Shown: positions 5,563 through 28,308 of the stretch, piece by piece
How positions within the stretch are numbered: position 1 is the stretch's first letter
Layout of the letters: each line of letters starts with the position of its first letter
From: Acidimicrobiia bacterium
GTDB taxonomy: Bacteria > Actinomycetota > Acidimicrobiia > Spongiisociales > ZC4RG35
Assembly: GCA_965215185.1 (NCBI GenBank)
Contig: OZ244034.1
Location: 1,856,001-1,920,000 of the forward strand
Length of the DNA: 64,000 nucleotides
Reading direction: 5' to 3'
Program-made: the position numbers and the translations under genes
The notes under the pieces: generated by a model
What the model was told of the DNA's origin: nothing
Seen by the model: only the letters and a program-made list of their open reading frames with translations
Database searches by the model: none

Positions 5563-5653
5563 GCTCATCCAGAGCGGTGGAGGGATCAGGCCCCGCGAAA
5601 CCGCGGCAACCAGTCGGCACAGCCGACACGGTGCCAACGCCTGACCGATGGGT
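5563..5653 (+). promoter_or_regulatory. SAM-I (S-box) riboswitch, apparently lacking P4
   Basis: CTCATCCAGAG..GAGGGA..GGCCC..GGCAACC..GGTGCCAA..GATGGG core; TCAGGC/GCCTGA pseudoknot; upstream of metX. Confidence 0.88.
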
Positions 5654-5688
5654 AAAGGAGGGGACTTATATACCTGGGTAGACAAAGG

Positions 5689-5710
5689 TGTCACACCCGT
5701 TCGGTATTCT
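5689..5710 (+). promoter_or_regulatory. Putative tnpB promoter, TGTC-N12-TANNNT, leaderless start
   Basis: TGTC ACACCCGTTCGG TATTCT, then 7 nt, then in-frame GTG at 5718; same layout in copy 2. Confidence 0.55.
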
Positions 5711-5717
5711 GGTTTGT

Positions 5718-6907
5718 GTGTATTTGGTGCAGACTTTTAGGTTTCCCGCTAAGTGTTCCCCGTCCGCTCATCGTCGGTTGACCGAGGTGTTTTCCATGTC
5801 CGCGGAGTTGTATAACGCGGCGTTGGAGTCTTGGAGGGGAACATACGCGTGGTGGAAGGAACGCCACCCCGGAGAGGACGACAAGTTCCCCTCGGAGTTG
5901 CGGCGTTCGAAGTACGACTTGATGAAAGAGTTCACGGGGGTTCGTTCGGATATTCCCGAGTGGGAGCGGCTGGCCGTCCAGGTGGGAAGGGGCGTTGTGT
6001 GTCGTTTCGACCGGACGGTGAGTTCCTTCTACAAACGCTGCAAAGAAGGGGGCAAGCCGGGGTTTCCCCGCTTCGTTTCCGAGACAAAGGCCGTAGGTTG
6101 GCCGATGCCCTCGGTGGGGGCGCCCGGGTGGTGGAACTACGCGTGGTGAGAACGCCCCTCCGCACAGAGGTACACGTCGTGGTCCGCCACCCGGAGAGGA
6201 ACATATCCAGGGTGGAGCCCGCCAATCCCGTGGGGATAGATGTCGGTTTGACGCACCGTTTGACCCTTTCGGGCGGGCAGGTCGTCCCCCCGCGGAAAGT
6301 GGACGCGTCCCGTGTCAAGAGGGCGCAGAGAAAACTGTCCCGTGCCAAGAAAGGCTCCCGCACCAGGGGCAAGAAAGCCCACGCGCTGGCCAGACTCCAC
6401 CGCAGAGAAAAAGAGAAAGCCGTCCAGGCTGACTTCCGTCTCGCCCACCACCTCGTCCGCTCCTACGACGGGATAGCCACCGAGGACCTCAACGTGACGG
6501 GGATGCTCAAATCGAAAAGGTTCTCCAAGAAAATGTCCGAACAACGATGGTCGTCCCTCGGGAACATCCTGGAATACAAAGCCGAGAAAGCTGGCATTCC
6601 ATATGAAAGGGTGAATCCCCGCCACACCACCACAGACTGTTCGGCCTGCGGGCACCGACAGGCAATGCCTCTCCGGCAGAGGGTGTTTCACTGCGGGTCG
6701 TGTGGAATGTGCGTGGGTAGGGACGTCAACGCCGCAATCAACATACGCGCCCGGGCTTTTGGCCCGGGGTCGGGAGGGACCATCCCCGACGCGATGCGCG
6801 TAACAAACTTCGGCTGTAAGACAGGCACGCCCTCCGGGGAATGCTCTGCGGGTCGACATCGCAGAACAGTATCACCCACGGCGACATCCGTCTACCCAAG
6901 TATATAA
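5718..6907 (+). pseudogene. tnpB: TnpB RNA-guided nuclease, frameshifted by internal deletion
   Basis: N-part ..LYNAAL..GKPGFPRF and C-part VGIDVG, ATEDLNV, CSACG/CGSCG, RDVNAAINI in different frames; about 40 codons present in copies 2/3 are missing near 6070. Confidence 0.9.
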
Positions 6908-6925
6908 ATCCCTAAAGGAGAGTCG

Positions 6926-8101
6926 GTGACAATCAGCGCCCCCAACCCGCCTAACGGCCCTGAGTCTCGAACTTTGACGCCCACCCAAACCCAGTTCGTC
7001 CGCCTTGACGGTCCATTCACCACCCTGAGCGGCAGGACCATCCCGGAGGTGACTCTCGCCTATGAGATGTACGGGGAATTCAACAAGGCCCGAGACAATG
7101 TCATACTGGTGTTCCACGCCCTGACCGGAAGCCAGCACGCGGCAGGATTCAACCCGTCGGTGCCCGGGGTGGGAGATCTGTGGACCGAAGAGATGCAAGT
7201 CGGCTGGTGGGAGGATTTCATCGGACCCGGACGGGCGCTAGACACCAACAAGCACGCCGTGTTGTGCGTCAACTACCTGGGCGGATGCTATGGGTCAACC
7301 GGCCCGTCCTCCCTCAACCCCGCCACCGCCCGCCCCTACGGTTCGGCTTTTCCCTCCCTGACCATCACCGACATCGTGGACTCTCAGGTGCAGCTATTGG
7401 ACAAGCTGGGCATTGAACGGCTCCACGCCTGCACGGGAGGTTCGGTGGGTGGCCTGTTGGCGGTGGTGCTGGGGACCCGCTATCCCGACCGGGTGAACGT
7501 GGTGATACCCATCGCGGCGGGTCTGGAAGTCACCATCTTGCAGGTAATCCACAATTTCGAGCAGATGTTCGCCATCATCGCCGACCCCCATTTTCAGGGC
7601 GGCGACTTCTACGACGGTCCCCGACCCGACCTGGGGTTGGCCCTGGCCAGGATGATCAGTCACAAGACCTTTGTCTCCCTGACCGCCTTTCGGGAGCGAA
7701 TCCGCCACCAGATCATGGAGCAGGAGTACCTGGCCGGATACCGAGTGCAGCACCCGATGGAGTCGTACATGCTGCACCAAGGGGAAAAGTTCGTGGAGAG
7801 ATTCGACGCCAACACCTATCTGCGGGTGGTGCGGATCTGGCAGAAGTTCGATCTTCTCAAAGAGGTGGGTGGCCAGACTTTCGGGGACCTGTTGAGCCGG
7901 TGCCGAAACCAGCAGTGGATGGTCTTCACCATCGATTCGGATGTCTGCTTCTATCCCGGCGAGCAGGAGAACATGGTCAAGGAACTCAACGCGGCGGGGG
8001 TGCCGGCTCTATGGCACACCGTGCATTCCAACAAGGGCCACGACGCCTTCCTGTTGGAGCCTGACAAGTTCAAACCGGGTCTGCGGGCAGTTTTGGGTTA
8101 G
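6926..8101 (+). CDS. metX: Homoserine O-acetyltransferase
   Basis: FHALTGSQH, WWEDFIGPG, GGCYGSTGP, GGSVGG nucleophile, RFDANTY, GHDAFLLE; SAM riboswitch upstream. Confidence 0.95.
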   Translation: MTISAPNPPNGPESRTLTPTQTQFVRLDGPFTTLSGRTIPEVTLAYEMYGEFNKARDNVILVFHALTGSQHAAGFNPSVPGVGDLWTEEMQVGWWEDFIGPGRALDTNKHAVLCVNYLGGCYGSTGPSSLNPATARPYGSAFPSLTITDIVDSQVQLLDKLGIERLHACTGGSVGGLLAVVLGTRYPDRVNVVIPIAAGLEVTILQVIHNFEQMFAIIADPHFQGGDFYDGPRPDLGLALARMISHKTFVSLTAFRERIRHQIMEQEYLAGYRVQHPMESYMLHQGEKFVERFDANTYLRVVRIWQKFDLLKEVGGQTFGDLLSRCRNQQWMVFTIDSDVCFYPGEQENMVKELNAAGVPALWHTVHSNKGHDAFLLEPDKFKPGLRAVLG

Positions 8102-8114
8102 TCGCCTCCGCCGA

Positions 8115-9146
8115 TTAGCAAAGTTGCACCGAAGGCTTGCCTTCGATCACTTCTCCGATCGTCGCGGAGTGGACACCTTCGGCCGCCAGGCGGGCAGTGA
8201 GAGTCTCCACCCGGGAGACGGGTACCGAGATCAGCAGTCCCCCGCTGGTCTGGGCGTCGCACACCAGGCGGCGGGAAATTTCGTCACCTCCCAAGAGTCT
8301 GTGATCAACCGCGGCCAGGTTGCGAAGGCTTCCCCCCGGATAGTGTCCGGCGGCCAGCAGTCGTTCCGCGCCCGGCAGCAGCGGCAATCGGGAAATCTGG
8401 ATCCGAGCGGCCGCCCCGGAGGCGTCCAGCATGGAGAGCAAGTGCCCCGCCAAACCGTAGCCGGTCACGTCGGTGGCCGCCGAAACCCCCACCGAGGTCA
8501 TCGCCCGGCAAGCCGCATCGTTGAGGGCGCTCATCTCCTCCACCGCCGCCTCCAAAGACTCCGAAGGACAATCACCCACCTTGTGGGCAGTGGTGATGAT
8601 CCCGGTTCCGAGCGGTTTGGTCAACACCAGGCGGTCGGTAGGCCGCGCTCCGCAATTGGTGATCACCTCCTCCTCCGCCGCGATCCCCGTCACCGCGAAC
8701 CCGTACTTGGGCTCGGGATCGTCAATGGTGTGTCCGCCCACCACCGTGCACCCCGCCCGGGCCATGATCTCCGCCCCGCCCAGGGCCACCTCCCCGAGAA
8801 TATCAAGCGAAAGGTCCTGGGAGGGCCAGCACATCAACTGAAGCGCCGTGAGGGGCCTGCCCCCCATGGCGTATACATCGGAGAGAGCGTTGGCGGCGGC
8901 GATCCGCCCCCACGTCCGGGGGTCGTCCACCACCGGAGTGAAGAAGTCCACCGTCTGGATGAGGACGCGCCCCTCCGACAGGCGGTATACGCCTGCGTCG
9001 TCGCGGGTCTTCACCCCCACCACCAATTGAGGTGAGGAGAAGGCGGGATGATTCTGCAAATGGCGCAGCACCTGCGCCAGCTCGGCCGATCCGAGCTTGC
9101 AGCCTCAGCCAGCGCCGTGACTGAACTGGGTGAGCCTGATGTCCAT
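8115..9146 (-). CDS. selD: Selenide, water dikinase, selenocysteine-containing (in-frame UGA at 9107-9105)
   Basis: MDIRLTQFSHGAG-UGA-GCKLG in frame with DDAGVY, TVDFFTP, ALSDVYAMGG, DVTGYGL, DAQTSGGLL. Confidence 0.93.
9072..9102 (-). promoter_or_regulatory. Putative bacterial SECIS hairpin downstream of selD UGA
   Basis: AGCTCGG-ATCGG-CCGAGCT stem-loop beginning 7 nt after UGA, extendable by CTGC/GCAG. Confidence 0.6.
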
Positions 9147-9158
9147 CGCCACAAAGTT

Positions 9159-9285
9159 AGGGACTTATATACCTGCGCGCCCAATTTGGGCGCCGCGGGC
9201 GCCACTGTTTCACCGGGTCCGCCAAATGCTTTTGGCCGGAGTCGACTGGCGTCTTACAGCAGATATTCGTGGACTGACCACCGTC
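9159..9285 (-). mobile_element. Orphan right end (omegaRNA-like region plus TIR) of the tnpB element family
   Basis: Minus strand ACGAATATCTGCTGTAAGAC..GAAACAGT..CAGGTATATAAGTCCCT aligns colinearly with the last ~125 bp of copy 3; no tnpB or left end nearby. Confidence 0.85.
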
Positions 9286-9391
9286 TATTTCGAAGTCACC
9301 ATGTTGTTTCAACAGCCGGCGGCGAGGTGGGGCCCGCCAGCCTTATGCATCGTCGGCTCGACCCTCCGATCGCGACGATATCCTTTGGCGG

Positions 9392-9874
9392 GTGATAACC
9401 GAAGAAACAAGCACCTTCCTCACTCCCGAAGCACACCAACGGCTTCACGCTGAACTGGCGGAGCTCAAAGGACCCAAGAGGATCGAGATTTCCGATCGCA
9501 TCGCCGAGGCCCGCTCGCACGGCGACATCCGAGAAAACGCCGACTACCACGCCGCCAAGGACGAGCAAGGTCTGATGGAGGCGCGGATCGTCCACTTGGA
9601 GAGGGTTCTGCGCGACGCGCAGGTGAGAGAGGTCCACGACACCGGCAAGGTGGAGATCGGCTCGATGGTGACCGTGGTGGACAGCGATGGCGACAAACTG
9701 GAATTCCTACTGGCGCCGGCCGAGAACCGCGGATCGGCCCGGTTGGTGGTCTCGCCCACCAGTCCGTTGGGCAGCGCCGTGCTGTCCAAGTCACCCGGCG
9801 ACCTGGTGGCCTATGTGGCTCCCGGTGGAAAGTTCCAAGTAAGAGTCACCTCGGTTCGCCCCTTCTCGGGCTGA
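9392..9874 (+). CDS. greA: Transcription elongation factor GreA
   Basis: ARSHGDIRENADYHAAK, SPTSPLGSA. Confidence 0.95.
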   Translation: MITEETSTFLTPEAHQRLHAELAELKGPKRIEISDRIAEARSHGDIRENADYHAAKDEQGLMEARIVHLERVLRDAQVREVHDTGKVEIGSMVTVVDSDGDKLEFLLAPAENRGSARLVVSPTSPLGSAVLSKSPGDLVAYVAPGGKFQVRVTSVRPFSG

Positions 9875-9960
9875 CCGGGCGCCTGTCCCGGGCTCCCTTC
9901 TACAGGGCCGGGGCAATGGTGGGAGGTTGACGGGGACAAGCCCGTAACCTCTTTGAGACA

Positions 9961-11364
9961 ATGAAGTTGCGACTGGATCGCCCCCGGGAACTGGCCCAGC
10001 GCCTCCGCAGGGCCGCTCATCTTCGGCCCACCGAAGTCGAAGAGTACCTGGGCGCCAACATCCAGATGTGGAAGGCTCTGGCGGAGGCTTCTCCCCATGA
10101 TGCGGCAGACATCCTGGAGTCGGTCTCCCCCGAAATAGCCGGGGAGTTGCTTGGCCCCCTCGATCGCCAACAGAGCGCCCCAGTACTGGAGGAGCTGCGC
10201 GATACCCTGGCAGCCACTCTGCTGGAGGCACTGCCCATTTCGGAAGCGTCGGCGGTGTTGGAGGAGATGCCATCCACCGAGGCGGTGGACATTCTGGAGA
10301 ACATGCCCGCCGAAACGGTAACCGCCTTGATCGACCTGATGGCGGAACCGGCCAGTTCGGAAGTCAACCGGCTATTTCACTACCCATCCGACACCGCCGG
10401 GGGCCTGATGACCACCGAGGTGGCGGTGCTGCCCATCGGACTGACCGCCGGGGAGGCGATCGAGCGGATCCGCAATATCCGGGAAATGGTGGATGACCTC
10501 ACCTATGTTTATATCGTCGACGACTTCGGAGCCCTGCGGGGGGTGCTCTCTTTTCGGGACCTGGTATTTGCGAGACCATCGGTAGGTCTGGACGAGGCGA
10601 TGGAAGCCAACCCGATAGTGGTGCACGCCACCGCCGACCGGGAAGAAGTCTCCGAGCTGATGCAGCGCTACCGGCTGCTGGGGTTGCCGGTGATAGACGA
10701 TCTGGGTCACCTGCAGGGGATGGTGACCTATGACGAGGTGATTGACGCCGTGCAAGCCGAGGCCTCCGAAGACTTCGCCACCTCGGTGGGAGCGGGCGCC
10801 GAGGAAACCATCCACACCAGCGTGTTCTCCTCGGTAAGAATGCGCCTGCCCTGGCTGACCCTCAACCTGTTCCTGGCCTTGATCGTGGCGTTCGTGATCG
10901 AGCGGCAGACCGGGATCATCTCGGCCGAGCCGGTGCTGGCGGCGCTGATGCCGGTGGTGGCGCTTCTGGGCGGCAACGGCGGAGTCCAGAGCCTGGCGGT
11001 GGTGATACGTTCCATGGCGATAGGGGATCTGCCCCGGGCCCGGATCTGGACGGTGCTGAGACGCCAGCTGGGGATCGGGCTCTTCAACGGCGCCTTCTTG
11101 GCGGTGGCCGCCATGCTCCTGACCCTGGCGCTTCTATCAGGGGATCTATTCCACTCCAACTACGGCGCCACCAAGGTGGCGCCCGTGGTGGGACTGGCGG
11201 CGCTGGCCAACCTGACCATCGCCACCCTGGCAGGCTCCGGCATTCCCATCGCGCTGCGCAGATTGGGTTTCGACCCGGCCCTTGCCTCCAGCATCTTCCT
11301 GACCCTCATCACCGATGTAGTGGGATTCGGAGGATTCCTGATGGTGGCCGCAATCCTGCTGTAA
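9961..11364 (+). CDS. mgtE: Magnesium transporter MgtE
   Basis: TAGGLMTTE, CBS pair, RLPWL, GGNGGVQS, DPALAS..TLITDVVG. Confidence 0.93.
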   Translation: MKLRLDRPRELAQRLRRAAHLRPTEVEEYLGANIQMWKALAEASPHDAADILESVSPEIAGELLGPLDRQQSAPVLEELRDTLAATLLEALPISEASAVLEEMPSTEAVDILENMPAETVTALIDLMAEPASSEVNRLFHYPSDTAGGLMTTEVAVLPIGLTAGEAIERIRNIREMVDDLTYVYIVDDFGALRGVLSFRDLVFARPSVGLDEAMEANPIVVHATADREEVSELMQRYRLLGLPVIDDLGHLQGMVTYDEVIDAVQAEASEDFATSVGAGAEETIHTSVFSSVRMRLPWLTLNLFLALIVAFVIERQTGIISAEPVLAALMPVVALLGGNGGVQSLAVVIRSMAIGDLPRARIWTVLRRQLGIGLFNGAFLAVAAMLLTLALLSGDLFHSNYGATKVAPVVGLAALANLTIATLAGSGIPIALRRLGFDPALASSIFLTLITDVVGFGGFLMVAAILL

Positions 11365-11405
11365 GCCGCCTCGCGAAAAACCGCCCAGAATTACAGCCTC
11401 AAACC

Positions 11406-11435
11406 TTGACGTTTGTCACACACAGATCCCATATT
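11406..11435 (+). promoter_or_regulatory. Putative sigma70-type promoter for the downstream ncRNA
   Basis: TTGACG-N18-CATATT; also reads as TGTC-N12-CATATT and contains CTTGA-N6-TCACA. Confidence 0.45.
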
Positions 11436-11448
11436 GACGACAGCAGCC

Positions 11449-11610
11449 CCGTGTGGTTAGGTGGCTAATCCGCGATCGGCCTGATCTCCATCCAACATGG
11501 ATCGGCGCCCTCACCACTGAAGATGTCACCGACGACAAGTTCGGTGGATCCGGTTGGGAGTGGCGGCTGCCGGGCTACTCGGGTGGCCACCCAGACTTGC
11601 GGGCACACGG
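11449..11610 (+). ncRNA. Candidate rod-shaped structured RNA (6S-like)
   Basis: Nested pairings 11449-55/11604-10, 11460-67/11584-91, 11491-96/11553-58, 11499-503/11547-51 with an unpaired central region; intergenic between convergent genes. Confidence 0.5.
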
Positions 11611-11623
11611 AATATCCGGCGGC

Positions 11624-12199
11624 TCAGGAGCCGATTATGAACCCCTCCAGATTGGCGAAGGGACCCTGGAAACGGAGGATGGAACCTTCCAGCAGGCTCA
11701 CCAGATAGTGACGGTCCAGCAATTCGGATTCGTCCGCAGTCCGCTCTTCCTCCGCCTTGACCAACACCTCCACCGCATCTCGGTTGTCGAACACGTGGAC
11801 CTCGTAGAGGTCATCGCGCTCCTCGTACACCGACAGCACCAGATTCTCAAGTTCGCGATCGGTGTAGCTGCCCGAGGGGATCTCCAGGAACAACCGGTTG
11901 CCGTCGCGGGTCGGCTCCTGGCGGACCACCCGATAGAAGATCTCGCTGGCCTCCACGGCGTCGGTTTCGGTGTCCGAAGCGTCCTCTGCGGTCTCGGCCG
12001 GTTCCTCAACCATGGTGGGGGTATCAGGAACAGTGGTGGTTTCAAGCTCCGGAGCCGTGGTGGTGGAGGCGGCGGTGGTCACCACCCGGGAGGTGGTTGT
12101 GACCAAAGCCGGAACGTCGTCGCTTCCACAAGCCGCTGCCGCAACCGATAACAATGCGGCCACAACACAGAGCTTGAGGAGCCCTTTGTACCTGCTCAT
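11624..12199 (-). CDS. Hypothetical lipoprotein with Thr/Pro-rich linker
   Basis: Signal peptide with AAAC lipobox, TTT-rich linker, acidic C-terminal domain. Confidence 0.75.
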   Translation of the reverse strand: MSRYKGLLKLCVVAALLSVAAAACGSDDVPALVTTTSRVVTTAASTTTAPELETTTVPDTPTMVEEPAETAEDASDTETDAVEASEIFYRVVRQEPTRDGNRLFLEIPSGSYTDRELENLVLSVYEERDDLYEVHVFDNRDAVEVLVKAEEERTADESELLDRHYLVSLLEGSILRFQGPFANLEGFIIGS

Positions 12200-12248
12200 G
12201 TCAATAGTCTCCGATTCGATGTTGCCCACTCGGGTGGAAGGGGCTCCT

Positions 12249-13079
12249 TCAGGATCCATCAATTGCCTGCTGGATTCGTCTCTTGAATCCGGCGATCAGT
12301 CGGGCGGTCACCGGGCCCGCTGTATACCGGTGGTCATCCAACTCCACGATCGGGGTGATTTCCCGGGTGGTTCCGATCACCATCGCCTCATCGGCTCCCA
12401 ACATGCGATCCAGACCGAAACGACCCTCCCGGCAAGGTATGCCGAGTTCGGATACCATGTCCAGCACCACCCGGCGGGTGATGGAGTCGAGGATCCACAA
12501 ATCCAAGGATGGGGTCTCGAACACCCCGTCACACACCCAGGCCACCGAGAACACCGGTCCCTCCAAGACAGTCCCGTCCTCGGAAACGAGCAACGCCTCG
12601 TCGTATCCCTCCTTCACCGCCCGGCGGGTGGAAGCCATGTTCGGCGCGTAGGAAAGGGTCTTGCCGCCGGCCAGATCCCATTTGTGCCCGGACGAATGCC
12701 AGGGGGCGGTCATCACCTTGAGACGAATCCGGTCCGCCCGGGAGGAAACGTCCTGCCACATCACCACGCACACTTTTTCACCCGGCTGCTGGCCCCGGCC
12801 CAGCACCACCCGGATCAATCCCTCCTCGCCACAAGCCAACACCTGCTCCACCCAGGAATCGAGATCGGACCGGTCGGGCGTTTCCAGATCCAGCATCTCG
12901 GCGGATCGTTCCAGCCGGTCGAGATGAGGGCCGGCCTCAAAGGCGTGGCCCCCGTAGACCCGCATCACCTCGAAGCACCCGTCGCCTCTCAGGATGGTGG
13001 GGCTGTTGATCGAGAAGATCATCTCTCCCGAGGGCTGCCCGTTGACCAGGATCGTGGGTGCGCTCACAGCCGGTTCCAT
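12249..13079 (-). CDS. Aminotransferase class IV (PabC/IlvE/Dat-like)
   Basis: RGDGCFE, HLDRLERSA, KTLSY, GYDEALL, ILDSITR. Confidence 0.9.
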   Translation of the reverse strand: MEPAVSAPTILVNGQPSGEMIFSINSPTILRGDGCFEVMRVYGGHAFEAGPHLDRLERSAEMLDLETPDRSDLDSWVEQVLACGEEGLIRVVLGRGQQPGEKVCVVMWQDVSSRADRIRLKVMTAPWHSSGHKWDLAGGKTLSYAPNMASTRRAVKEGYDEALLVSEDGTVLEGPVFSVAWVCDGVFETPSLDLWILDSITRRVVLDMVSELGIPCREGRFGLDRMLGADEAMVIGTTREITPIVELDDHRYTAGPVTARLIAGFKRRIQQAIDGS

Positions 13080-14728: not shown

Positions 14729-14747
14729 AAGAATACGGAATAATCAC

Positions 14748-14859
14748 CGCGTTCGGACAGAAGATCTTCTGCTGTGAAACCCGACCCTCCCAGGGAGGGC
14801 AACGCTGGCGGAAACAGTATCCCTTTAGCCCCGTTGGGCACTCAGGTTTATAAGTCCCT
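14748..14859 (+). mobile_element. Orphan right end (omegaRNA-like region plus TIR) of the tnpB element family
   Basis: TTCTGCTGTGAAAC..GAAACAGTATC..GGGCACTCAGGTTTATAAGTCCCT; TIR 14836-14858 is 2 mismatches from the copy 2 right TIR. Confidence 0.82.
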
Positions 14860-14861
14860 AT

Positions 14862-14883
14862 CTTTGCGGTTGATGACGCTTGA
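14862..14883 (+). promoter_or_regulatory. Possible 3' half of a fluoride riboswitch truncated by the element end
   Basis: GCGGTTGATGACGCTT resembles the GYTGATGRC 3' segment of crcB RNA and lies just upstream of two crcB genes; no 5' half found. Confidence 0.3.
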
Positions 14884-14916
14884 TGCCACAGGCGGCCGGG
14901 ACCGCTCCGACCGCCG

Positions 14917-18378: not shown

Positions 18379-19392
18379 CTAGAGAGGAATGCGCATGGCT
18401 TCGGCTATCACCTCGATACTGCTCATCAGTTCAGCGAACTCGTGAGGGAGGATCGCTTGGGCGCCGTCAACCAGAGCTGTTTCGGGAGTGGGATGGACAT
18501 CGATCATTATCCCGTCCGCTCCCACCGCCAAAGCCGCTCTGGAAAGGGGCGCCACCAATTGTCTTTTGCCCGACGCGTGGGAGGGATCGACGATCACCGG
18601 AAGATGGGATAGTTCTTTGAGGAGCGGAACTGCCGTGATGTCGAGAGTGTTGCGAGAGGCGGTCTCGAAAGTGCGGATACCCCGCTCAGCCATCAGAATC
18701 TCCTGATTTCCCTCTTTAAAGATGTATTCGGCGGCGTTCAGCCATTCCTCCAAAGTGGCGGTGAAGCCCCGCTTGAGCATCACCGGGGTCTTGGTGCGGC
18801 CCACTTCGGTAAGGAGGGCAAAGTTGGACATATTCCGGGTTCCGATCCGGACCATGTCGGCGTATCCGGCCACCAGTTCCACGTCTCGGGGATCCAGCAC
18901 CTCGGCCACGAACGGCATGTCAAATTCCTCGCGGGCCTCGGCCAAGAGCATCAGCCCCTTTTCCTTCAAACCCTGAAAGGAGAACGGAGAAGTGCGCGGC
19001 TTGAAGGCGTCTCCCCGCAACACCGTGGCGCCCGCCTCTCTCACGGCCTCGGCGGTTTGGAACAATACGTCCCGAGATTCCACGGCACACGGTCCCGCGA
19101 TAGCAGTAAACGACCCGTCGCCGATCCTCACCCCCCGGATCTCGATCACTGTGTTCGCCTCCTGGAACTCCCGGCTCACCAGCTTGAAAGGCCTCATCAC
19201 CGGTACGGCCTTCTCCACACCACCCAGCGCCTCCAGGGGCAATTGCAGAATCTGCTGACGATCACCCACTGCTCCTATGACAGTCCGGAAACGTCCCACC
19301 GACACATGAGCCTCACAATCTATAGACTGAAGCCGGTTCACAACGACCTGAACCTGTTCGTCGGTAGCGTCTTGTCTCATCACGATGATCAT
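18379..19392 (-). CDS. aroF: DAHP synthase type I-beta with N-terminal regulatory domain
   Basis: [38 protein letters not shown]. Confidence 0.93.
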
Positions 19393-19549
19393 CGGCGATC
19401 CCTTTTCGTCAATCTGTCTCCAATATTACGGCTCCACAAACTACCGAGAGTCGTTGAATCACCTCGCCGGAGCGCAGGACGGTGATCGCGAAGTATTCCG
19501 AAGGCCTGACCGAACCCTGCGTCCGGTGGTCCGGTAACCTCTTTCCGAT

Positions 19550-20104
19550 ATGTCCATTGATATCGCCGGATTCATTCACAACGTCAAAGAACACGCGATC
19601 AAACACGCCTTTCATATTCACGACGAGCGACACTTTGTGGAGACCTATTCGCTTCGCCAATCCTGGGAGGTGGACCTACATCCCGCCGAGTCCTGCAACC
19701 TGCCCATCGACCTGCACCTGTCGTTGGATGTTGAACCCCGGGCGCTGTTGGCCCTGCTCGACCGCCTGGAAGAGATGGACGACGACTTCGAGGAACCAGA
19801 AGACATATATCAGATGCACATGTACTTCAACTGGTCGGTTCCTCCGCTCACCAATCCGCCGGATTTGTTAGTGCTGGCCACCGATCTGGCCGGAGTGGGC
19901 GACATCCCGCTCCCCATCGAAGTGCAGGCCATCGACTCCTACGCTCCCCTGGGCCCTCCCACTCAACGGCGTCTGATGATCACCGGCACCGTTCACATCT
20001 CCATGGTCGACGTGGTGATGGGACGCGAACAGCTGTGCGAAACCTTGGACCTGGCCAAAGAGGTAAGCGTCTATTTGGCCGACCATATCGAAGCCTGGGT
20101 TTAA
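19550..20104 (+). CDS. Hypothetical protein
   Basis: 184-aa ORF with host-like codon use filling the gap before element copy 2. Confidence 0.7.
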   Translation: MSIDIAGFIHNVKEHAIKHAFHIHDERHFVETYSLRQSWEVDLHPAESCNLPIDLHLSLDVEPRALLALLDRLEEMDDDFEEPEDIYQMHMYFNWSVPPLTNPPDLLVLATDLAGVGDIPLPIEVQAIDSYAPLGPPTQRRLMITGTVHISMVDVVMGREQLCETLDLAKEVSVYLADHIEAWV

Positions 20105-20116
20105 GGGAGGGAGGGA

Positions 20117-21453
20117 GGGACTTATATACCTGAGTACCCGAGGGTGCTCTGATACTGTATCTGTGTCGTCTGCCTGCCGTTTCGCCCCGAAGAGCTCGCC
20201 GGTCTTACAGCAGAGGTTTGTATAGCGCGACACATCGGCTGACAGTCCCGGCCGATCCCGAGGTTCCCGGTGGGGAAAGCCTCGGGCGCATATGTTTCTT
20301 GCGGCGGTGTGGTCTCTGCACATGATGAGACCGCACCCTCCGCACTCGTACACTCGCACAGACAGAGGCATGCTCTGTCTGTGACCGCAGCACGAGCAGT
20401 CCGTGGAGGTGTGTGACGGGTTTACTCTCACATACGGGACACCAGTTTTCCAGGCTTTGTGTGCCAGTATCTGACAGAGAGTCTCCCATCTTTGTTCGGA
20501 CATCTTCTTGGAGAACCTCTTGGATCTGAGCATTCCCCCCACGTTCAAGCCCTCCACCGCCATGCCGTCGTGGGCGCTCACCAACTGGTGGGCTAGGCGG
20601 AAGTCGGCCTGTCGGGCTCGTTCCTTTTCTCTGCGCCACACCTTGGCGTGAGCCGCCACCTTCTTGCGGCGTGAGAGGGAACCTTTCTTCGATCTGCTGA
20701 TCTGGCGCTGGGTTCTCCTTATAGCGGAGCGATCCACCACTGGAGCGGGGATGCTCCGCCCGTTCGAGGTGGGAAGGCGGATGTGCAGTCCCAGGTCTAT
20801 ACCCACCGGATGTTGCGGCTCCTTCTCGGCCATGGGGCGGTGCGGGTGTCTCAGCACCACCTGCACCTCGGTTCTCAGAGGAGTGCGCACCACTCGCAGT
20901 TCCACCACCATGGCGCCGAGACCGAGCGCGGTAGCGAGTCGGTTGCTCCGGTCGGAGAACCGCAACCGAGGTACACCCTTCACCTGCAATCTCCACCATC
21001 GTTCCGATTGGTTGTTGCCGGTACCGGGCGCACAGACCATGGATGGGGTCGGATCGGGTATCTCTATGGAACGCCAACGGTGCGAAGGCTTGAAGCGCGG
21101 ATACCCCCGGGCCTTCCTCCTTCTTTGCACCTGCGATAGAAGGCGGCTCTGGCCCTGTCAAAACGGCGGATGACCCCTCTGCCTACCTTGACGGACAGCC
21201 GGTTCCACTCCGCAAGATCCTCGCGGACCCCGGTGAACTGCTTTATCAAGTCCTACTTGGATTGGTTCAGTTCGGAAGGGAACGTCTCCGTTTCCAGATT
21301 ATGGTGTTCCTTCCACCATGAGTATGCGCCTTTCCACGACTCCAGGCAGGCGTTGTACATCTCGGCGCACATTCCGAAAATCTCCGTGAGCCTGCGGTGC
21401 TGGGAGGGTGAACACTTGGCGGGCAGGTGCATGGCCTGAAACCAAACATCCAT
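20117..21453 (-). pseudogene. tnpB: TnpB, disrupted by a TAG stop (21255-21253) and a frameshift near 21115
   Basis: MYNACLESW, GYPRFK, VGIDLG, AVEGLNV, CSCCG/CGGCG, RDHTAARNI across three ORF pieces. Confidence 0.9.
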
Positions 21454-21461
21454 AGGGTGTC

Positions 21462-21483
21462 AGCGTACCCAGAGGGTGTGACA
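21462..21483 (-). promoter_or_regulatory. Putative tnpB promoter, TGTC-N12-TANNNT
   Basis: Minus strand TGTC ACACCCTCTGGG TACGCT, 8 nt before ATG 21453. Confidence 0.55.
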
Positions 21484-21639
21484 CTCTTTGCGCGTTAGGA
21501 GCCCGTGGGCAATCAGGTATACAAGTCCCCTTCAAAGCCATCCGCACCCTGCGGTGCTGTCCAGTTGCGCTTTGACCGACGGATCGGTGGTGGCGGGGGT
21601 GGGCCCTACGGGGGAGGAAACTAGGTGGTTTTTCGCGGG

Positions 21640-22608
21640 TTAGGGATAGCCGAACTGGGGTTGCAGTCCTACAACCTTGGGTCCGTCCTCTTCCATCTCC
21701 AAGAACACCAGCCAGGTGGACCAATCGAGTCCGCCCAGGGTCTCGTCATCTCCGGGGTCGTGTATGGCTACCCATGGGAAGTTGGCGAACGCCGAAGAAA
21801 TCGCCGATCCGGGCAGCACCGCATTGGAGCCCAACGGGAGGGCGCCCACCTCGATCGTCATGTCCTCGTCCAGGTAATCAGAGAGGAAGGCATCGGAGAT
21901 CACTTCCTTCCAGGATCCCACCGTGGCGGCCCCCTCGCTGGCCGAAGCTCCGGTGTTCGACCACTTCAAATCGGTGTCGTCGGAGGCCAATGTGCCTAGC
22001 TCCTCCGGTGTCCAGCGCCGCAAGTTGTCGTCAAAATAGATAGCGAACAGACCCCTCCAGGACACGCTGTCGGCCAAGCCTTCTCCCAGCACCAAAGCGT
22101 TGGCGAATCGGTCGAGAGCCGAACTCCATTCCCACTCCTGTTCGACCTCCGACGGCGTCCAAATCTCGGTCAGGTAATAGCCGTAGGCCCATCCCTGGAA
22201 ATCCGCAGTTCTCACTTCGTGCCAAATCCGGCCCTCGTCCACTTCGACAGCGCCGGTGGCGACCAGCTCCGCCTGAGCCGGCGCAAGCTCGCCGACGACG
22301 GGATTCTGGGTTCCCGGATCTCCCCGGACGTTCAATTTGTTGTTTGACTCACCGGGCGCAAGCACCACCACCCCCAGGCTTCGGCGAGGGATGGTGGTGG
22401 TGGTAGTGGGCGCGGCGGTGGAAGCAACCGTGGCTTGATCCGTTGTGTCGGGTGCCGCATTTGCGTCTGCTGCACCTTCCGAAGTGGTGGTGGCTTCACC
22501 ATTGGAGCCTTCTGCATCGTCGCCTCCGCATGCCGCCAGCACCAGAGTCATCAGCACCATCACCCACAGAAGTCGGCGAGGCACGGTCTGCGATGCAGTA
22601 TGGGACAT
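21640..22608 (-). CDS. Lipoprotein with SH3b-like domain
   Basis: LAAC lipobox, Thr-rich linker, LNVRGDPG..VVGEL..WHEV..GWAYGYYL. Confidence 0.8.
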   Translation of the reverse strand: MSHTASQTVPRRLLWVMVLMTLVLAACGGDDAEGSNGEATTTSEGAADANAAPDTTDQATVASTAAPTTTTTIPRRSLGVVVLAPGESNNKLNVRGDPGTQNPVVGELAPAQAELVATGAVEVDEGRIWHEVRTADFQGWAYGYYLTEIWTPSEVEQEWEWSSALDRFANALVLGEGLADSVSWRGLFAIYFDDNLRRWTPEELGTLASDDTDLKWSNTGASASEGAATVGSWKEVISDAFLSDYLDEDMTIEVGALPLGSNAVLPGSAISSAFANFPWVAIHDPGDDETLGGLDWSTWLVFLEMEEDGPKVVGLQPQFGYP

Positions 22609-22722
22609 ACCAATTCAGATTAGCACCCAGCCGGAACGTATTTCCTGTCAAAAACATGCTTTTATGAAGTCAGCGCCCTCCGTTGCATTACCAGGGTCGC
22701 CCTCCGGTCGCGTAGACACTCG

Positions 22723-23571
22723 CTAGGGCTGCTCGCCCCTCTCCAGCCGCCGGTTGATGTCACTCACCACCTCCACCAATTCCAACGGCTCGTCGATCAC
22801 ATAATGAGCGCCAGCCTCCCGCAGCAATCGACGGGTGTTTGCCAAACGCCGGGCCACCTGCGCCGACGACCACGACTCCGCCTGCTCCAAGGTGTCGGCG
22901 TTCATGTAATTGCTGTATCGGGCGATCCCCACCGTCCAGCATCCCGCCGACAAGCCCTCCTCCACTCCCGAGACCGTGTCGTCCACCTTGACCACCGACT
23001 GAATGGGGTGCACATCGAGCAGCTCCAGATTGCGATACAGCATGAAGGGGCGGGGACGGCTGCCATGAGCCACCTCGTCACCCGTCACGGTGCAATCGGG
23101 GTAAAAGCCCTGTTGGCGGGCGTGCTCCAAGAGGACATTCACCATGGATCGCAAGAACCCGGTGGTCATGCCGATCTTTACGCCGAGGTCACCCTGCAAC
23201 TTCTCCGCCATTTCCACCACGCCCGGCAGGAGTTGGGCGTACTCGGGAAGACATTCGATCTGACGCGGCTCGAACTCTTCGAACAGCGACTGAGCGTCAC
23301 TGTCACCGGGTTCTGTGCCGTGGGTGGCCATCCATCGTTCTCTGATGACAGGATCTTCCAGCAGCCTTCTGATATGCAGATCCTTGGACAAACCCATCGG
23401 ACCCCGCGCCCGTCCCATACTTATCTCCACACCCCTGGTTTTGAACACCTCCACAAAAGTCCGGGCCGGGGCCATCACATAGGCGTCACAAACGGTTCCG
23501 CTCCAATCAAGGATTGCCCCACGAACCGGGCCACGGAACTCTCGGGCCAAAGGTGATTCGAACTTCCACAT
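22723..23571 (-). CDS. phnX: Phosphonoacetaldehyde hydrolase
   Basis: ILDWSGTVCD, PMGLSKDLHIR (Schiff-base Lys), SRPRPFM, VKVDDT. Confidence 0.9.
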   Translation of the reverse strand: MWKFESPLAREFRGPVRGAILDWSGTVCDAYVMAPARTFVEVFKTRGVEISMGRARGPMGLSKDLHIRRLLEDPVIRERWMATHGTEPGDSDAQSLFEEFEPRQIECLPEYAQLLPGVVEMAEKLQGDLGVKIGMTTGFLRSMVNVLLEHARQQGFYPDCTVTGDEVAHGSRPRPFMLYRNLELLDVHPIQSVVKVDDTVSGVEEGLSAGCWTVGIARYSNYMNADTLEQAESWSSAQVARRLANTRRLLREAGAHYVIDEPLELVEVVSDINRRLERGEQP

Positions 23572-23590
23572 TGCCTTTACCAGGGAGCCG

Positions 23591-23704
23591 ATCGGAGCGA
23601 ACAATTCGTAATCAACATTTCCTCTATAAGTCTGCCAATCGGAGCGAACAATTCGTAATCAACATTTCCTCTATAAGTCTGCCAATCGGAGCGAACGATT
23701 CGTA
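23591..23704. repeat. 47-bp tandem repeat, 2.4 copies
   Basis: ATCGGAGCGAACAATTCGTAATCAACATTTCCTCTATAAGTCTGCCA at 23591 and 23638, partial at 23685. Confidence 0.95.
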
Positions 23705-23719
23705 GTATTGTCCCGTCCC

Positions 23720-24496
23720 ATGTCGGAGACTGTTCAACTATTCGTCACTTGCGTTATCGACGCCATCTTTCCGCAAGTCGGCCGCGACGTTGTTGAGGAG
23801 TTGGAAAGAAATGGTGTAACCGTTGAATTTCCCGAGGACCAGACCTGCTGCGGCCAGCCGGCCTACAACGCCGGGCATCTTCGGGAGGCATCCGAGGTGC
23901 TGGTCCACAATCTGGAGGTTCTGGACCGCACCGAAGGGCCCATAGTGATTCCCTCCGGATCCTGCACCGACTTCATCATGCATCACGGCCCGCGGGTGGC
24001 CGCCGATATTCCGGGCAGGGCCGACATTGCCAAGCGGGTGGCGGCTCGCATCCGCGAGTTCACGTCTTATCTTGTCGAAAAGCGGCGAGAAATCGCCAGC
24101 GAGGGGACCGCAGACGAAAGCGGGGACAACGGAGAGCGGCGGCGGGCCTACTACCACCCTTCCTGCCACGCTCTGCGCGGCCTGGGTCTGCGCCGAGAGG
24201 GGGAAATGCTGTTGGAATCGGTGAAGGGGGTGGAACGGGTTGAACTCGAGGGTGCCGAGGAATGCTGTGGATTCGGTGGCCTGTTCGCATTGGAGATGCC
24301 CGAAATCTCCGCCAAGATCATGAACACCAAGCTGGATCGACTGGAGAACGGGGAAGTGCAGATGCTGGTGGGCGCCGACGTGGCCTGCCTCATGCACATG
24401 GAAGGGGGCCTTCGTCGCCGCAAGAACCCCATGCAGGTGCTGCACATCGCCTCGGCGCTGGCCGGTGGCCGGGCCGTTGATGGAGAATACCAATGA
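23720..24496 (+). CDS. lutA: Lactate utilization protein A (CCG-domain Fe-S protein)
   Basis: LFVTCVID, QTCCGQPAYNAG, PSGSC, ECCGFGG, CLMHMEG. Confidence 0.9.
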   Translation: MSETVQLFVTCVIDAIFPQVGRDVVEELERNGVTVEFPEDQTCCGQPAYNAGHLREASEVLVHNLEVLDRTEGPIVIPSGSCTDFIMHHGPRVAADIPGRADIAKRVAARIREFTSYLVEKRREIASEGTADESGDNGERRRAYYHPSCHALRGLGLRREGEMLLESVKGVERVELEGAEECCGFGGLFALEMPEISAKIMNTKLDRLENGEVQMLVGADVACLMHMEGGLRRRKNPMQVLHIASALAGGRAVDGEYQ

Positions 24497-25896
24497 GCCA
24501 GCCGGTTACCTTCCGCCGTCGCGCCATTGAAGAGATGGCCACTTCCAAACCCGCGGCGGTGGACCGGGCAGCGCGCCGGTTTACCGACAAACGCCAATGG
24601 GCGGTGAACGATTTCGCAGCCATGGAGGAAACCCGCGACCGGGGCCGGGAGATCCGCCTTCACACCCTGGCCAACCTGCACCGCTACCTCGACCAATTCG
24701 CCGACTCGGTGGAACGCGCCGGAGGGCAGGTGCTGTGGGCCGCCGACGCGGCTGAGGCCAACCAGCAGATCGCCGAGTTGATAGCCAGGAAAAAGGGTTC
24801 GCTGGTGATCAAATCCAAATCGATGGTCACCGAAGAACTCGGACTCCTCCACCATCTGGAAAACGAGGGCCACACCGTGGTGGAGACCGATCTGGGAGAG
24901 TTCATCGTCCAGATCGCCAAGGACCATCCGTCCCACATCATCGCGCCGGTCATGCACCTCACCCGCCAGGACATCGGCGCCCTTTTCCAACAGGAACTGG
25001 GATTTCCCTATTCGGAGGACCCGGCTGATCTAACCCAGATGGCCCGCCGGCACCTACGACGATTTTTCCTCTCCGCCGATGTGGGGATCTCGGGAGTGAA
25101 CATGGGAGTGGCCGAGACCGGATCGATAATCACCATCACCAACGAGGGCAACGGCTGGCTGACCACCGCCGCGCCCCGGTTGCACATCGCGGTGATGGGC
25201 ATGGAGCGCCTGGTTCCCACTATGAATGACGCGGCCACCATCGTGGAGATACTGGCTCGGTCGGCCACGGGTCAACGGCTGAGCGTCTACACCAATGTGG
25301 TGACCGGCCCGAGAAGACCGGGCGACCCGGACGGGCCGGACGAGATGGCGGTGGTGATCGTGGACAACGGGCGCAGCCTCGTGTTGGAAAGCGACGCCTC
25401 CGAGATCCTGGCCTGCATCCGGTGCGGCGCCTGCCTGAACGTCTGCCCTGTGTTCCGGGAGGTGGGGGGTCACGCCTACGGACAGGTGTATCCCGGTCCG
25501 GTGGGGGCGGTGCTGGCGCCCGGGCTGGCCGACTTCAAGGATCATTTGGACCTGCCCTATGCCTCCAGCCTGTGCGGAGCGTGCCGGGAGGTATGCCCGG
25601 TGCGTATCGACATCCCCAAGCTCCTGGTCAACCAACGCGTTCGAGCCACCAAGGAAAACGATCCGTTCCGGTGGATGGGCCCGGGACTGGCCGTTTACCG
25701 CCAAGCCGGCAAGCGCCCGCTGCTGTGGAAATCGTTGCTGGCCGCCGGGCGAATGGCCGGGCGGGTAAAGAAAGAAGGCGAGTGGTTCCACCGCCTGCCC
25801 TTCCAAAGCAAAGGGTGGACCGACAGCCGCGACTTTCCCCCACCGGCGAAACAGTCCTTCCGGCAATGGTGGAAAGAAAGCCGCGATGGAACGTAG
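24493..25896 (+). CDS. lutB: Lactate utilization protein B
   Basis: KSKSMVTEE, ETDLGE, PSHIIAP, CIRCGACLNVCP, SSLCGACREVCP. Confidence 0.92.
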   Translation: MSQPVTFRRRAIEEMATSKPAAVDRAARRFTDKRQWAVNDFAAMEETRDRGREIRLHTLANLHRYLDQFADSVERAGGQVLWAADAAEANQQIAELIARKKGSLVIKSKSMVTEELGLLHHLENEGHTVVETDLGEFIVQIAKDHPSHIIAPVMHLTRQDIGALFQQELGFPYSEDPADLTQMARRHLRRFFLSADVGISGVNMGVAETGSIITITNEGNGWLTTAAPRLHIAVMGMERLVPTMNDAATIVEILARSATGQRLSVYTNVVTGPRRPGDPDGPDEMAVVIVDNGRSLVLESDASEILACIRCGACLNVCPVFREVGGHAYGQVYPGPVGAVLAPGLADFKDHLDLPYASSLCGACREVCPVRIDIPKLLVNQRVRATKENDPFRWMGPGLAVYRQAGKRPLLWKSLLAAGRMAGRVKKEGEWFHRLPFQSKGWTDSRDFPPPAKQSFRQWWKESRDGT

Positions 25897-26539
25897 CCAG
25901 TTCCTGAAGCGGATCGAACAGGCCCTCGGCTCCGATTCCCTGCCCGGGCTTCCCGCCCGCCATCCCGACCACCACCTCCCCCACCTGGAAGAGGTGGACC
26001 TGACCACTCATTTCATAGCCGCCTTCGAGCTGCTGGACGGGATAGTCCATCACGGATCGCCTCTGGACGTGATCACCCGGATCATGGAAGACCGCGGAAC
26101 CCGGGAGTACCTGGCCTGGGACCAGGAGCACCTTCCCAGCGAGGGCCTGTTAGACGCTCTGGGACAGAAGGGATACCGGCGGAAGGGAACCGTCCTGCCA
26201 TCCGACCCCGATGGTCGTATCCCCCACCAGATGGGCTACATGGACGCCGAGGTTGGGATCTCCGCGGCGATGGCCGCCCTGGCCGAGTCCGGCTCGGTGG
26301 TGGTGACTTCGGGACCCGGGCGTTCTCGTTTGGCCTCGGTGATCCCCGCCGTTCACATAGTGCTGGTGCCCACCAGGCTGATCTTTCGCTCGCTATCCCA
26401 TTGGGCGGCGCAGGTTGAATCACCCGATCAGTTGGCGAACATCATGGTCATAACCGGACCCAGCCGCACCGGCGACATCGAACTCACCCTCACCAAAGCA
26501 GTGCACGGACCCGGCGACATCCACGCCGTTCTGCTGTAG
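25886..26539 (+). CDS. lutC: Lactate utilization protein C (LUD domain)
   Basis: ALAESGSV, ITGPSRTGDIE, VHGP. Confidence 0.9.
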   Translation: MERSQFLKRIEQALGSDSLPGLPARHPDHHLPHLEEVDLTTHFIAAFELLDGIVHHGSPLDVITRIMEDRGTREYLAWDQEHLPSEGLLDALGQKGYRRKGTVLPSDPDGRIPHQMGYMDAEVGISAAMAALAESGSVVVTSGPGRSRLASVIPAVHIVLVPTRLIFRSLSHWAAQVESPDQLANIMVITGPSRTGDIELTLTKAVHGPGDIHAVLL

Positions 26540-26577
26540 GCGCCACCCCGTCCTCCTCAAGCTCCCGGGGTGTTTCA

Positions 26578-26823
26578 TCATGACAGTTGAATAGCTATCG
26601 GCTTTAGGTCTTCACTTGGAATCAAGGAGAGACCCATGAGGTTGATAATGTCTTCCCCGATCCCTTGGACGATCATCTCCCCAGGTTCTATATCTGTAGG
26701 GCCGAATGCGACTTCGCCGCCAAAGTTGACATACGCCCTGCGATAGAGATCGAAGCATTCATAGAGCACCTGATAGAGCTCTTTCGAAAAGCCTTCCTGC
26801 CCCCTGTAGTCGGCGCGACGTAG
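26578..26823 (-). pseudogene. 3' remnant of an unknown lower-GC gene cut at the right end of element copy 3
   Basis: Frame LRRADYRGQEGFSKELYQ...IAIQLS* is open right up to the TIR; its 5' part is not on the other side of the element. Confidence 0.5.
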
Positions 26824-26824
26824 A

Positions 26825-28228
26825 GGGACTTATATACCTAGGTTGACAGAGCGTCTAGGTGATACTGTTCTGCGGTGTCTGCCAGCATCTTCCGGCCTGA
26901 GCCGAAAGATGTCTTACAACAGAGATTTGTAGAGCGCACCGCGTCGGGAAACACGAGGTCATGTCCCACCCGACCCCAAGGATCCCAGGTGGGATAGTCT
27001 CGGGCGCATATGTTGATTGCAGCATTGTGGTCTCTGCACATGGTCAGTCCACACTGTTCGCACCGGAAGGTTCTCACGTTGAGGGGCATCTTTTGGTGAT
27101 GCCCGCATCGGGAACAGTCGGTGGAGGTGTGGCGAGGGTTTACCCCCGCATAGTGGACACCAGCTTTCGCGGCTTTGTGTTCCAGTATGAGATCGAAGGA
27201 TCCCCAGCGTTGCTGTGACATCTGTTTGGAGAACAGCTTGGTTTTCAGCAGTCCGGCGATATTGAGCTTTTCGACAGCTATGCCGTCGTAGGCCTTGACC
27301 AGGCGGTCGGCCAGGCGGAAGTCCGACTGGATGGCCTGTTCCTGTAGGCGGCGGTGCTGTTTGGCGAGAGTGTTTGCGCTTCTTGATGCGAGACCGTGAT
27401 CCCTTGACGGACCTGCTGAACCGGCGCTGAGCGCGCAACGCCTGTCGCAGATCCACGGTTGTGGGTGGTAGGTGTTCGCCGTCGGAAGTGACCAGGCGTG
27501 ACTTGAGGCCCTTGTCCAAACCGACGGGATTGACAGGATCTGCCACCGGTGGGCGGTCAGGGTGCTTGATGACCGCGTGTATCTCGACTCGCAGAGGAGT
27601 GCGGGCCACTCGCAGTTCCACCAGCCGGCCGCTCTCCAACGCGGTAGTGAGGCGGTCGTGTTTGTCCTCGAACCGTATCTGCGGCACGCCCTTCACCTGT
27701 AGTCTCCACCACTTCTCGCTGTGGTTCTTTCTCTCTCCCGGAGCTTTGAGCATCGCGCGGTCAGCGTTCACAATCTCTATCGACTTCCACCGGTGACGCG
27801 GCTTGAAACGGGGAAACCCGGCCTTCTTGGAAGGGTCCTTACATCTCTTATAAAAGGCCTGAATAGACCGGTCGAAGCGGCGCAACGTTCCGCGCCCCAC
27901 TCGAAGGCTCAAACGCTGCCACTCAGGATGGTCCTTGCGTACATCGGTGAACATCCGCAGACGGTCATAGTGAGACTGGTTCAGTTCTAGGGGAAGGGGT
28001 TCGTCGGGATGGTGTTCTTTCCACCACCGGTATGTGCCCTTCCATGATTCCAGGCATGCGTTATACAACTCGCAACACTGCGCGAAGATGTCATCCAAAC
28101 GACGGTGCGCCGAGCGGGAACAATGCCCTTTCAGCCGGATCGTCTGCACCCAAGGAACCATCATCTAAAAATATCCCACCCCTGCGAAAAAAGGGGTGGC
28201 TGGTTGTCAACCTAGGTATATAAGTCCC
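26825..28228 (-). mobile_element. Non-autonomous tnpB element with perfect 24-bp TIRs (copy 3)
   Basis: GGGACTTATATACCTAGGTTGACA (26825-26848) and TGTCAACCTAGGTATATAAGTCCC (28205-28228); no matching TSD. Confidence 0.92.
26838..28164 (-). pseudogene. tnpB: TnpB, single frameshift near 27370
   Basis: LYNACLESW, GFPRFK, VGLDKG then shifted frame AVEKLNI, CSRCG/CEQCG, RDHNAAINI; stop codon lies inside the TIR. Confidence 0.9.
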
Positions 28229-28308
28229 CACGATAACCCCTAGCCCGCGCCGTCGAAGAGGGACGATGGCGTCCCGCCCCCGGGCATCTTGTCTAATCTG
28301 GTTTGATC

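Follow-up and report, generated by a model that had tools for sequence, protein, structure and literature searches.

Three short elements that carry only tnpB, found in a 64,000-nt stretch of an Acidimicrobiia bacterium (the window; OZ244034.1 of GCA_965215185.1, positions 1,856,001-1,920,000 of the forward strand), are very probably non-autonomous derivatives of IS1595 insertion sequences, with tnpB and the predicted gene of its omegaRNA as their sole content, moved in trans by a DDE transposase of the IS1595 family. An earlier note on this DNA had recognised the three elements by their inverted repeats of 23-24 bp, had reported a perfect duplication around the first of them, and had proposed a non-autonomous DDE vehicle for tnpB, mobilised in trans, with ends and 8-bp duplications resembling those of IS1595. 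The elements and the duplication were borne out in the window, and the proposed vehicle is supported by the related genomes examined here, with the action of the transposase on the tnpB-element ends being the step that we infer. The genome containing the window (host genome) consists of a single 3.12-Mb contig.

The end motif GGGACTTRTATACC, allowing up to two mismatches, occurs nine times in the window against an expectation of 0.27, a count that none of 100 shuffles reached. Six of the nine occurrences pair up (5661/6912, 20117/21529 and 26825/28228) and delimit copy 1 (5661-6912, + strand, 1252 bp), copy 2 (20117-21529, - strand, 1413 bp, right end at 20117 and left end at 21529) and copy 3 (26825-28228, - strand, 1404 bp). 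The terminal inverted repeats (TIRs) of copy 3 (26825-26848 and 28205-28228) are identical at 24/24 positions, those of copy 1 (5661-5683 and 6890-6912) at 21/23 and those of copy 2 at about 20/23, the latter two counted by eye on the end sequences. The octamer TAAAGGAG is present on both flanks of copy 1, at 5653-5660 on the left and 6913-6920 on the right. In each element the coding content is tnpB-like sequence only, and all three genes are broken. Copy 1 (open reading frame (ORF) pieces 5688-6149 and 5831-6907) is ~180 bp shorter than its intact sister e1844 (genome positions 1844345-1845777), with an internal stretch gone and a frame change, and copy 2 has accumulated several frame changes and stops. 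The tnpB of copy 3 runs on the - strand in two frames, the N-terminal part from 28164 downward and the C-terminal part from 27692 to 26841, with a shift near residue 265; its 401-aa ORF is a chimera of these two frames, which is why Pfam and NCBIfam models matched only the first 265 residues. The motifs of TnpB are still present in the window copies, in broken frames. With all three genes being pseudogenes and only a fragment of a transposase retained in the host genome, the window copies are dead fossils.

The boundaries of copy 1 were established by aligning the element and its flanks to 16 other genomes of the genus. In 16/16 congeners the match to the left flank extends up to, and not into, the element, and that to the right flank resumes directly behind it, so that the site is empty at exactly these boundaries. 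The two flank matches overlap by 8 bp in 15 congeners and by 7 bp in one, and in three empty alleles aligned directly with both junctions of copy 1 the octamer TAAAGGAG is single. Copy 1 is therefore an insertion private to the host genome, accompanied by an 8-bp target duplication, and its inverted repeats are part of the element and not of the target. At the site of copy 3, the congener G004 tracks the flank exactly to the right-end boundary and then has ~730 bp that are absent from the host genome; at the site of copy 2, G002 has ~190 bp extra between the upstream gene and the site matching the left flank. These alignments suggest that the sequence adjoining the right ends of copies 2 and 3 has been lost. 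Deletions next to the insertion often accompany DDE transposition.

Further copies with duplications, whose absence the earlier note had listed as speaking against its proposal, were found in the host genome and in its relatives. The host genome holds seven tnpB elements with paired ends and a 3.5-kb composite with the same TIRs, as well as some solo ends and small derivatives; only two of its tnpB genes are intact. Among these eight TIR-bounded elements the 8-bp duplication is perfect at four (ACAGAAAA, TAATCGAA, ATTGTTTA and TAAAGGAG) and matches at 7/8 bases at one more. The TnpB family is present in 6/16 congeners and in 0/24 sampled more distant relatives. G011 has the most copies and the youngest-looking ones, some of them nearly identical and with perfect duplications, which flank 8/11 of its TIR pairs; at least six of its copies (L014, L017, L020, L022, L024 and L027) share one common TIR pair, four of them with perfect duplications. 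A breadth scan, in which an alignment of 16 TnpB sequences was compared with one genome per species, recovered 51 TnpB loci down to ~45% identity, several of them in other genera of the same class. TIRs could be paired at 34 of the 51 loci, with a perfect duplication in 20 of the 34 and 7/8 bases in six more. None of the 51 loci has an IS1595 transposase within 4 kb, and among 400 sampled genomes of the phylum neither a TnpB match at E <= 1e-25 other than that of the host genome nor an outgroup with a different vehicle was obtained. From these two results the sequences delineate a narrow TnpB clade which, as far as it was sampled, lives only in transposase-less IS1595-type shells.

Small TIR-bounded elements of 116, 275 and 360 bp lack tnpB and hold the right-end sequence of the tnpB elements, and are for this reason regarded as derivatives of them. 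The 3.5-kb element of the host genome (L001 501-4013, genome positions 952908-956420, duplication ACAGAAAA) was considered as an autonomous copy and rejected, both of its ends being of the right-end type and no family matching it; its ORFs of 640, 170 and 253 aa are without a match in Pfam and NCBIfam. The 640-aa ORF recurs, at 78% identity, near another tnpB element (L005 3618-5588), where it adjoins the 116-bp miniature element.

The two intact sister copies of the host genome (1844345-1845777 and 1952610-1954085) encode TnpB proteins with their catalytic motifs kept, and intact copies are also present in the congener G003. They score 157 and 191 bits against NF040570 (cut-off 100), with a match to PF07282 at 5.8e-18 in an intact sister copy, while the frameshifted ORF of copy 3 reaches only 63.7 bits on NF040570. 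The translations contain the RuvC and zinc-finger motifs NPVGID, IAxE, CxxCG..CxxCG and RDxNAAxNI (D, E, CxxC..CxxC and D), whose D and C columns are invariant, and whose E column is nearly so, among 16 homologues. In the intact copy at 1844345-1845777 the last RuvC motif is followed by a short duplication. In the two intact copies (L003 522-1925 and L005 506-1912) the tnpB frame remains open through the whole of the 3' region described next, with a TAA stop inside the right TIR.

An alignment of the final 180 nt from 28 elements reveals a conserved, structured and covarying region resembling an omegaRNA, for which transcription is predicted. Invariant blocks (TAAGAC and CAGAACAGTA) alternate with stems that vary in sequence with their pairing kept. 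RNAalifold returned two helices and two more were read from the alignment; over the 27 pairs of these four helices, 82.1% of cells are paired, as compared with 71.1% in column shuffles (0/500 reaching the observed value) and 39-54% with slid partners, and both sides have changed at 18 of the 27 pairs. The last hairpin is formed with the inner part of the right TIR (GTCAAC or GTCTAC), as read by eye on the alignment, which agrees with the proposal of the earlier note that the omegaRNA, here a predicted one, would include the right TIR. In the window the region occupies 6733-6912 (+) in copy 1, where it is conserved and ends in the right TIR, 20117-20296 (-) in copy 2 and 26825-27004 (-) in copy 3. 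No Rfam family matches the 3' regions. The sole RNA data consisted of one metatranscriptome run in the form of contigs, which show neither ends nor strand; one contig covers 6423-6913 at ~91% identity and continues 110 nt past the right TIR, and was not used as support because such a library can hold DNA.

The candidate helpers are separate elements that combine an intact IS1595 transposase with ends of the same kind. The best-defined example, in the congener G007 (G007:C42:51122-54045), is a 2924-bp element with a perfect 30-bp TIR GGGAATTATATACCTAAGTGGCGAAACCGG beginning GGGAATTATATACCTAAGTGGC and with the duplication TTACGTTT. It encodes a 324-aa transposase matching PF12762 (1.8e-37), PF12760 and NF033547 (182.7 bits, cut-off 75), and its second product is a DNA methyltransferase fused to an Mrr-like nuclease. 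In total, G007, G009, G013, G016, other genera and a 300-genome sample of the class yielded 17 autonomous IS1595 elements that have TIRs and a perfect 8-bp duplication. The TIRs of the window elements are identical to those of autonomous elements at 18-23 of 26 positions, the end GGGAATTACATACTTGGGTAGACGG of an element in G009:C36 matching the right end of copy 1 at 23/26. The TIR subtypes of the autonomous elements mirror those of the tnpB elements, whose ends are of IS1595 type (GGGAC/GTTATATACC..TTGAC); the subtype AAGTGGCGAA was found again in a deleted tnpB element and a small derivative, both in G011. The tnpB elements themselves contain no transposase of the type that joins a Zn-ribbon to DDE_Tnp_IS1595. 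ISfinder lists 8-bp repeats and passenger-carrying subgroups for the IS1595 family. In the autonomous IS1595 elements of the genus the passenger is an N6/N4 DNA methyltransferase fused to an Mrr-like or HNH nuclease domain (L011 809-2164, L038 1205-2557 and L034 1515-2537).

Insertions were further compared at their flanks, orienting each by its tnpB, with a set of 24 distinct ones that have perfect duplications. At position -1, immediately 5' of the left octamer copy, 22/24 have a G, and A or T occupies octamer positions 1, 2 and 3 in 23, 23 and 21 of the 24, respectively. The mirror position after the right octamer copy (+8) shows no preference, with C in 6/24. A G at -1 was also seen in 6/7 insertions whose duplications match at 6-7 of 8 bases and in 7/7 further distinct left flanks from metagenome contigs. 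Relative to a genome background of 0.358 at bases beside AT-rich octamers the enrichment has a binomial p of 1.9e-8. The autonomous IS1595 elements, oriented by their transposase, have G at -1 in 3/17 and C at +8 in 2/17, so that tnpB and autonomous elements differ in G at -1 with a Fisher p of 1.9e-6. A right-end bias of duplication loss was considered and dropped, as G at -1 is kept in 7 of 11 duplication-less elements, which is what adjacent deletions of equal frequency on both sides predict.

These observations can be accommodated in a single scheme. The vehicle is an IS1595-type TIR shell devoid of a transposase, with tnpB inside and a predicted omegaRNA gene that overlaps the end of tnpB and continues into the right TIR. 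A transposase supplied from separate elements with the same ends would act on it and insert it into an AT-rich octamer, irrespective of the neighbouring base, duplicating 8 bp. The RNA, if made and read out across the right TIR, would have the duplicated octamer and the right flank as its guide, supposing that, like the guides of other TnpB elements, it derives from the DNA that follows the right TIR. The unoccupied allele would in that case be cut by TnpB, with the G just 5' of the octamer serving there as the target-adjacent motif (TAM) or part of it, and the occupied allele would escape, as the final base of the TIR puts a C at the TAM position. That the G at -1 is a TAM, or part of one, is a tentative reading of the flanks to which we give slightly less than an even chance. 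Similarly, it is possible, though with odds a little short of even, that the nuclease and not the transposase decides which insertions of these DDE elements survive, and that the signature is the footprint in the population of RNA-guided retention or homing.

TnpB is typically carried by IS200/IS605 and IS607 elements, and the window copies might accordingly be ordinary tnpB elements of the IS200/IS605 (IS1341-group) or IS607 type, moved by a Y1 or serine TnpA, with repeats that arose by chance or represent left and right hairpins. Weak sub-threshold NCBIfam matches to IS200_TnpB and IS607_TnpB and the presence of one resolvase-domain gene in the host genome would fit such an origin, and the earlier note had named a Y1 or serine TnpA as the mobiliser that would speak against its own proposal. 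This explanation is already contradicted and extremely improbable. Y1 TnpA (PF01797, Y1_Tnp) has no match in the host genome, control genomes being matched, and the lone resolvase match, at position 2415447, lies ~530 kb from the window and adjoins no element; the elements end in true terminal inverted repeats, identical at up to 24/24 positions, with 8-bp duplications in 20/34 pairs, and the empty sites reveal a duplication, not a simple insertion. Just as improbable is the insertion of a tnpB element into the centre of a pre-existing palindrome, resembling a repetitive extragenic palindrome (REP) or a miniature inverted-repeat transposable element (MITE), so that the TIRs would be the two halves of the target. 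Small TIR-bounded elements without tnpB (116, 275 and 360 bp) do exist, as this would lead one to expect, but they hold the right-end sequence of tnpB elements and are hence derivatives; moreover, the TIRs accompany the element at unrelated sites, where the duplication differs from site to site, and the empty alleles of copy 1 contradict the explanation outright, having a single octamer and no TIR half.

A more serious alternative accepts the DDE vehicle and concerns the G at -1, which would reflect a target preference of the transposase or an effect of orientation, leaving TnpB as a passive or decaying passenger. The target consensus of DDE transposases often extends beyond the duplication, only a single position is conserved here, and most host-genome copies are pseudogenes, all of which would suit this alternative; it may well be right, with a probability that we place somewhat below one half. 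Set against it, the signal is one-sided (G at -1 in 22/24 versus C at +8 in 6/24) and follows the direction of tnpB, and it is absent from the autonomous elements of the same TIR family (3/17 and 2/17). Catalytic motifs and RNA structure are kept down to ~45% protein identity, which argues for selection on the function of the nuclease.

Several results weigh against the combination of an IS1595 vehicle moved in trans with a TAM-like flank. The 8-bp duplication is absent at copies 2 and 3, and about one third of the TIR pairs overall are without one. The earlier note had suggested searching the genome for a DDE helper with the same TIRs; this prediction held in the congeners, where intact helpers exist, and failed in the host genome, which has no intact IS1595 transposase, only a 96-aa fragment of the DDE domain, and from which the helper is gone. 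A TIR-like sequence lying against this fragment, GGGACCTATATAC, led to no conclusion, as the motif lies in frame inside the fragment and matches with two mismatches are expected by chance genome-wide. Likewise, no IS1595 transposase was found in the G011 assembly (95% complete, 10 contigs), where the helper may have been lost, left unassembled or be located on another replicon. The co-occurrence of helper and TnpB across the genus is poor and patchy: intact transposases are found in G007, G009, G013 and G016, and TnpB elements in G000, G002, G003, G004, G007, G011 and G015. With regard to the flanks, positions -2 to -5 show no preference in the 24 insertions, and a TAM of one base would be unusually short. 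On balance, the TIRs shared with 17 autonomous elements, the 8-bp duplications and the empty alleles leave non-autonomous IS1595 derivatives as the strongly favoured account of the elements.

The surroundings of the window copies provided some additional observations. Copy 1 was inserted between an S-adenosylmethionine (SAM) riboswitch (RF00162, 69.6 bits, 5562-5654 (+)), which ends six bases before the element, and a gene of the alpha/beta-hydrolase fold at 6926-8101 (+), and the riboswitch precedes this gene in 16/16 congeners. The same gene has the duplicated octamer TAAAGGAG as its ribosome-binding site, the right copy at 6913-6920 standing just before the start at 6926. From this arrangement, the control of the 6926-8101 gene by SAM has probably been uncoupled in the host genome. 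Unpaired occurrences of the end motif are present at 9160 (+) and 14858 (-), and belong to two solo right-end remnants at 9160-9300 (-) and 14740-14858 (+), each comprising a TIR and part of the omegaRNA-like region, with approximate inner limits. The two ends were considered as those of a 5.7-kb helper-bearing transposon, which was rejected because they enclose genes for GreA, MgtE and NAD synthase and are both right-end remnants, in inverted orientation. The outer flanks of the remnants, TAACTTTGTGG and TATCTTTGCGG, are alike at 9/11 positions by eye, and the whole inverted repeat (9149-9184 and 14834-14869) measures 36 nt at 86% identity. The congener match runs into the 9160 remnant in G002 and G011 only, and the 14858 remnant has no match at its locus in the 16 congeners. 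Elsewhere in the window, a 47-nt unit is present in three tandem copies at 23565-23705 (77-81% identity to the first), just upstream of an ORF starting at 23708.

The usual view is that in IS200/IS605 and IS607 elements TnpB earns its place by cleaving the scarless empty site anew. A 2026 review (PMC13565253) asks, in one of its passages, why DDE elements, whose excision already leaves a break, would keep TnpB at all. The present clade is a clean natural case for this question, combining a defined family, separate helper and passenger elements, and many dated insertions with empty alleles, and its one-sided flank signature is testable as a TAM. If the signature is a TAM, retention driven by TnpB works even where the target choice of the transposase and the TAM are uncoupled; if it is a preference of the transposase only, the clade lengthens the list of DDE-TnpB associations by one entry, whose partner family is newly named. 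A short TnpB of ~450 aa with a possibly minimal TAM could also be of interest to tool builders.

Compared with known systems, the elements share features with four groups. Like the IS1341 group of IS200/IS605, they measure ~1.3-1.5 kb, have tnpB as the sole gene and, as a prediction here, an omegaRNA at the 3' end; in contrast to that group, which passages of the review describe as lacking TIRs and duplications and depending on a Y1 TnpA (PMC13565253), they have both TIRs and duplications, and in this they also differ from IS607, which uses a serine recombinase and has neither. With Fanzor1 and Fanzor2* they have in common that a nuclease of the TnpB family resides in a non-autonomous cut-and-paste element bounded by TIRs and a short duplication, and that the scaffold, here a predicted one, reaches through the TIR: in the relevant passages of Yoon et al. 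(2023, NAR; PMC10711439), the Fanzor TIR and duplication belong to the guide-RNA scaffold and the RNA extends past the duplication. They are unlike Fanzors, which occur in eukaryotes and their viruses and in other transposon families, in their bacterial host, IS1595 affiliation, variable 8-bp duplications and canonical RuvC motifs. The earlier note had cited Fanzors as the best-known TIR-borne relatives, a precedent that stands without being the sole one, as TIR-borne prokaryotic TnpBs linked to DDE transposases are in print. The main text of Altae-Tran et al. (2023, PNAS; PMC10691335) describes six TnpB branches (DDE-1 to DDE-6) tied to DDE transposases, all with inverted terminal repeats, including solo TnpBs that have the same ends as transposase-bearing elements and were inferred to move in trans. 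The tnpB elements described here resemble these branches, as portrayed in that text, in having a prokaryotic TnpB between inverted ends, the 3' end of tnpB close to the transposon end, and solo copies; they differ in that tnpB and the transposase never share an element (0/51 loci). In that main text IS630 is the only family named and IS1595 has no occurrence, while the supplements may list the clade, and the review, in the part concerned, gives ISL2, IS630 and IS1031 as partners of TnpB (PMC13565253). In the full-text literature, TnpB with IS1595 returned no paper on the topic by its title or the start of its abstract, and no link was found of TnpB with ISXO2, IS1016, ISNwi1 or Merlin. With the IS1595 family itself the elements share TIRs and 8-bp duplications, checked in 17 elements, and helpers that carry a passenger gene; unlike those helpers, they lost or never had a transposase and carry tnpB instead. 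A DDE/TIR shell that houses a prokaryotic TnpB and is moved in trans is thus a kind of system already described, going by the main text of PMC10691335; what is new here is that the partner is IS1595, that helper and passenger are strictly separated and, most of all, that the G is one-sided.

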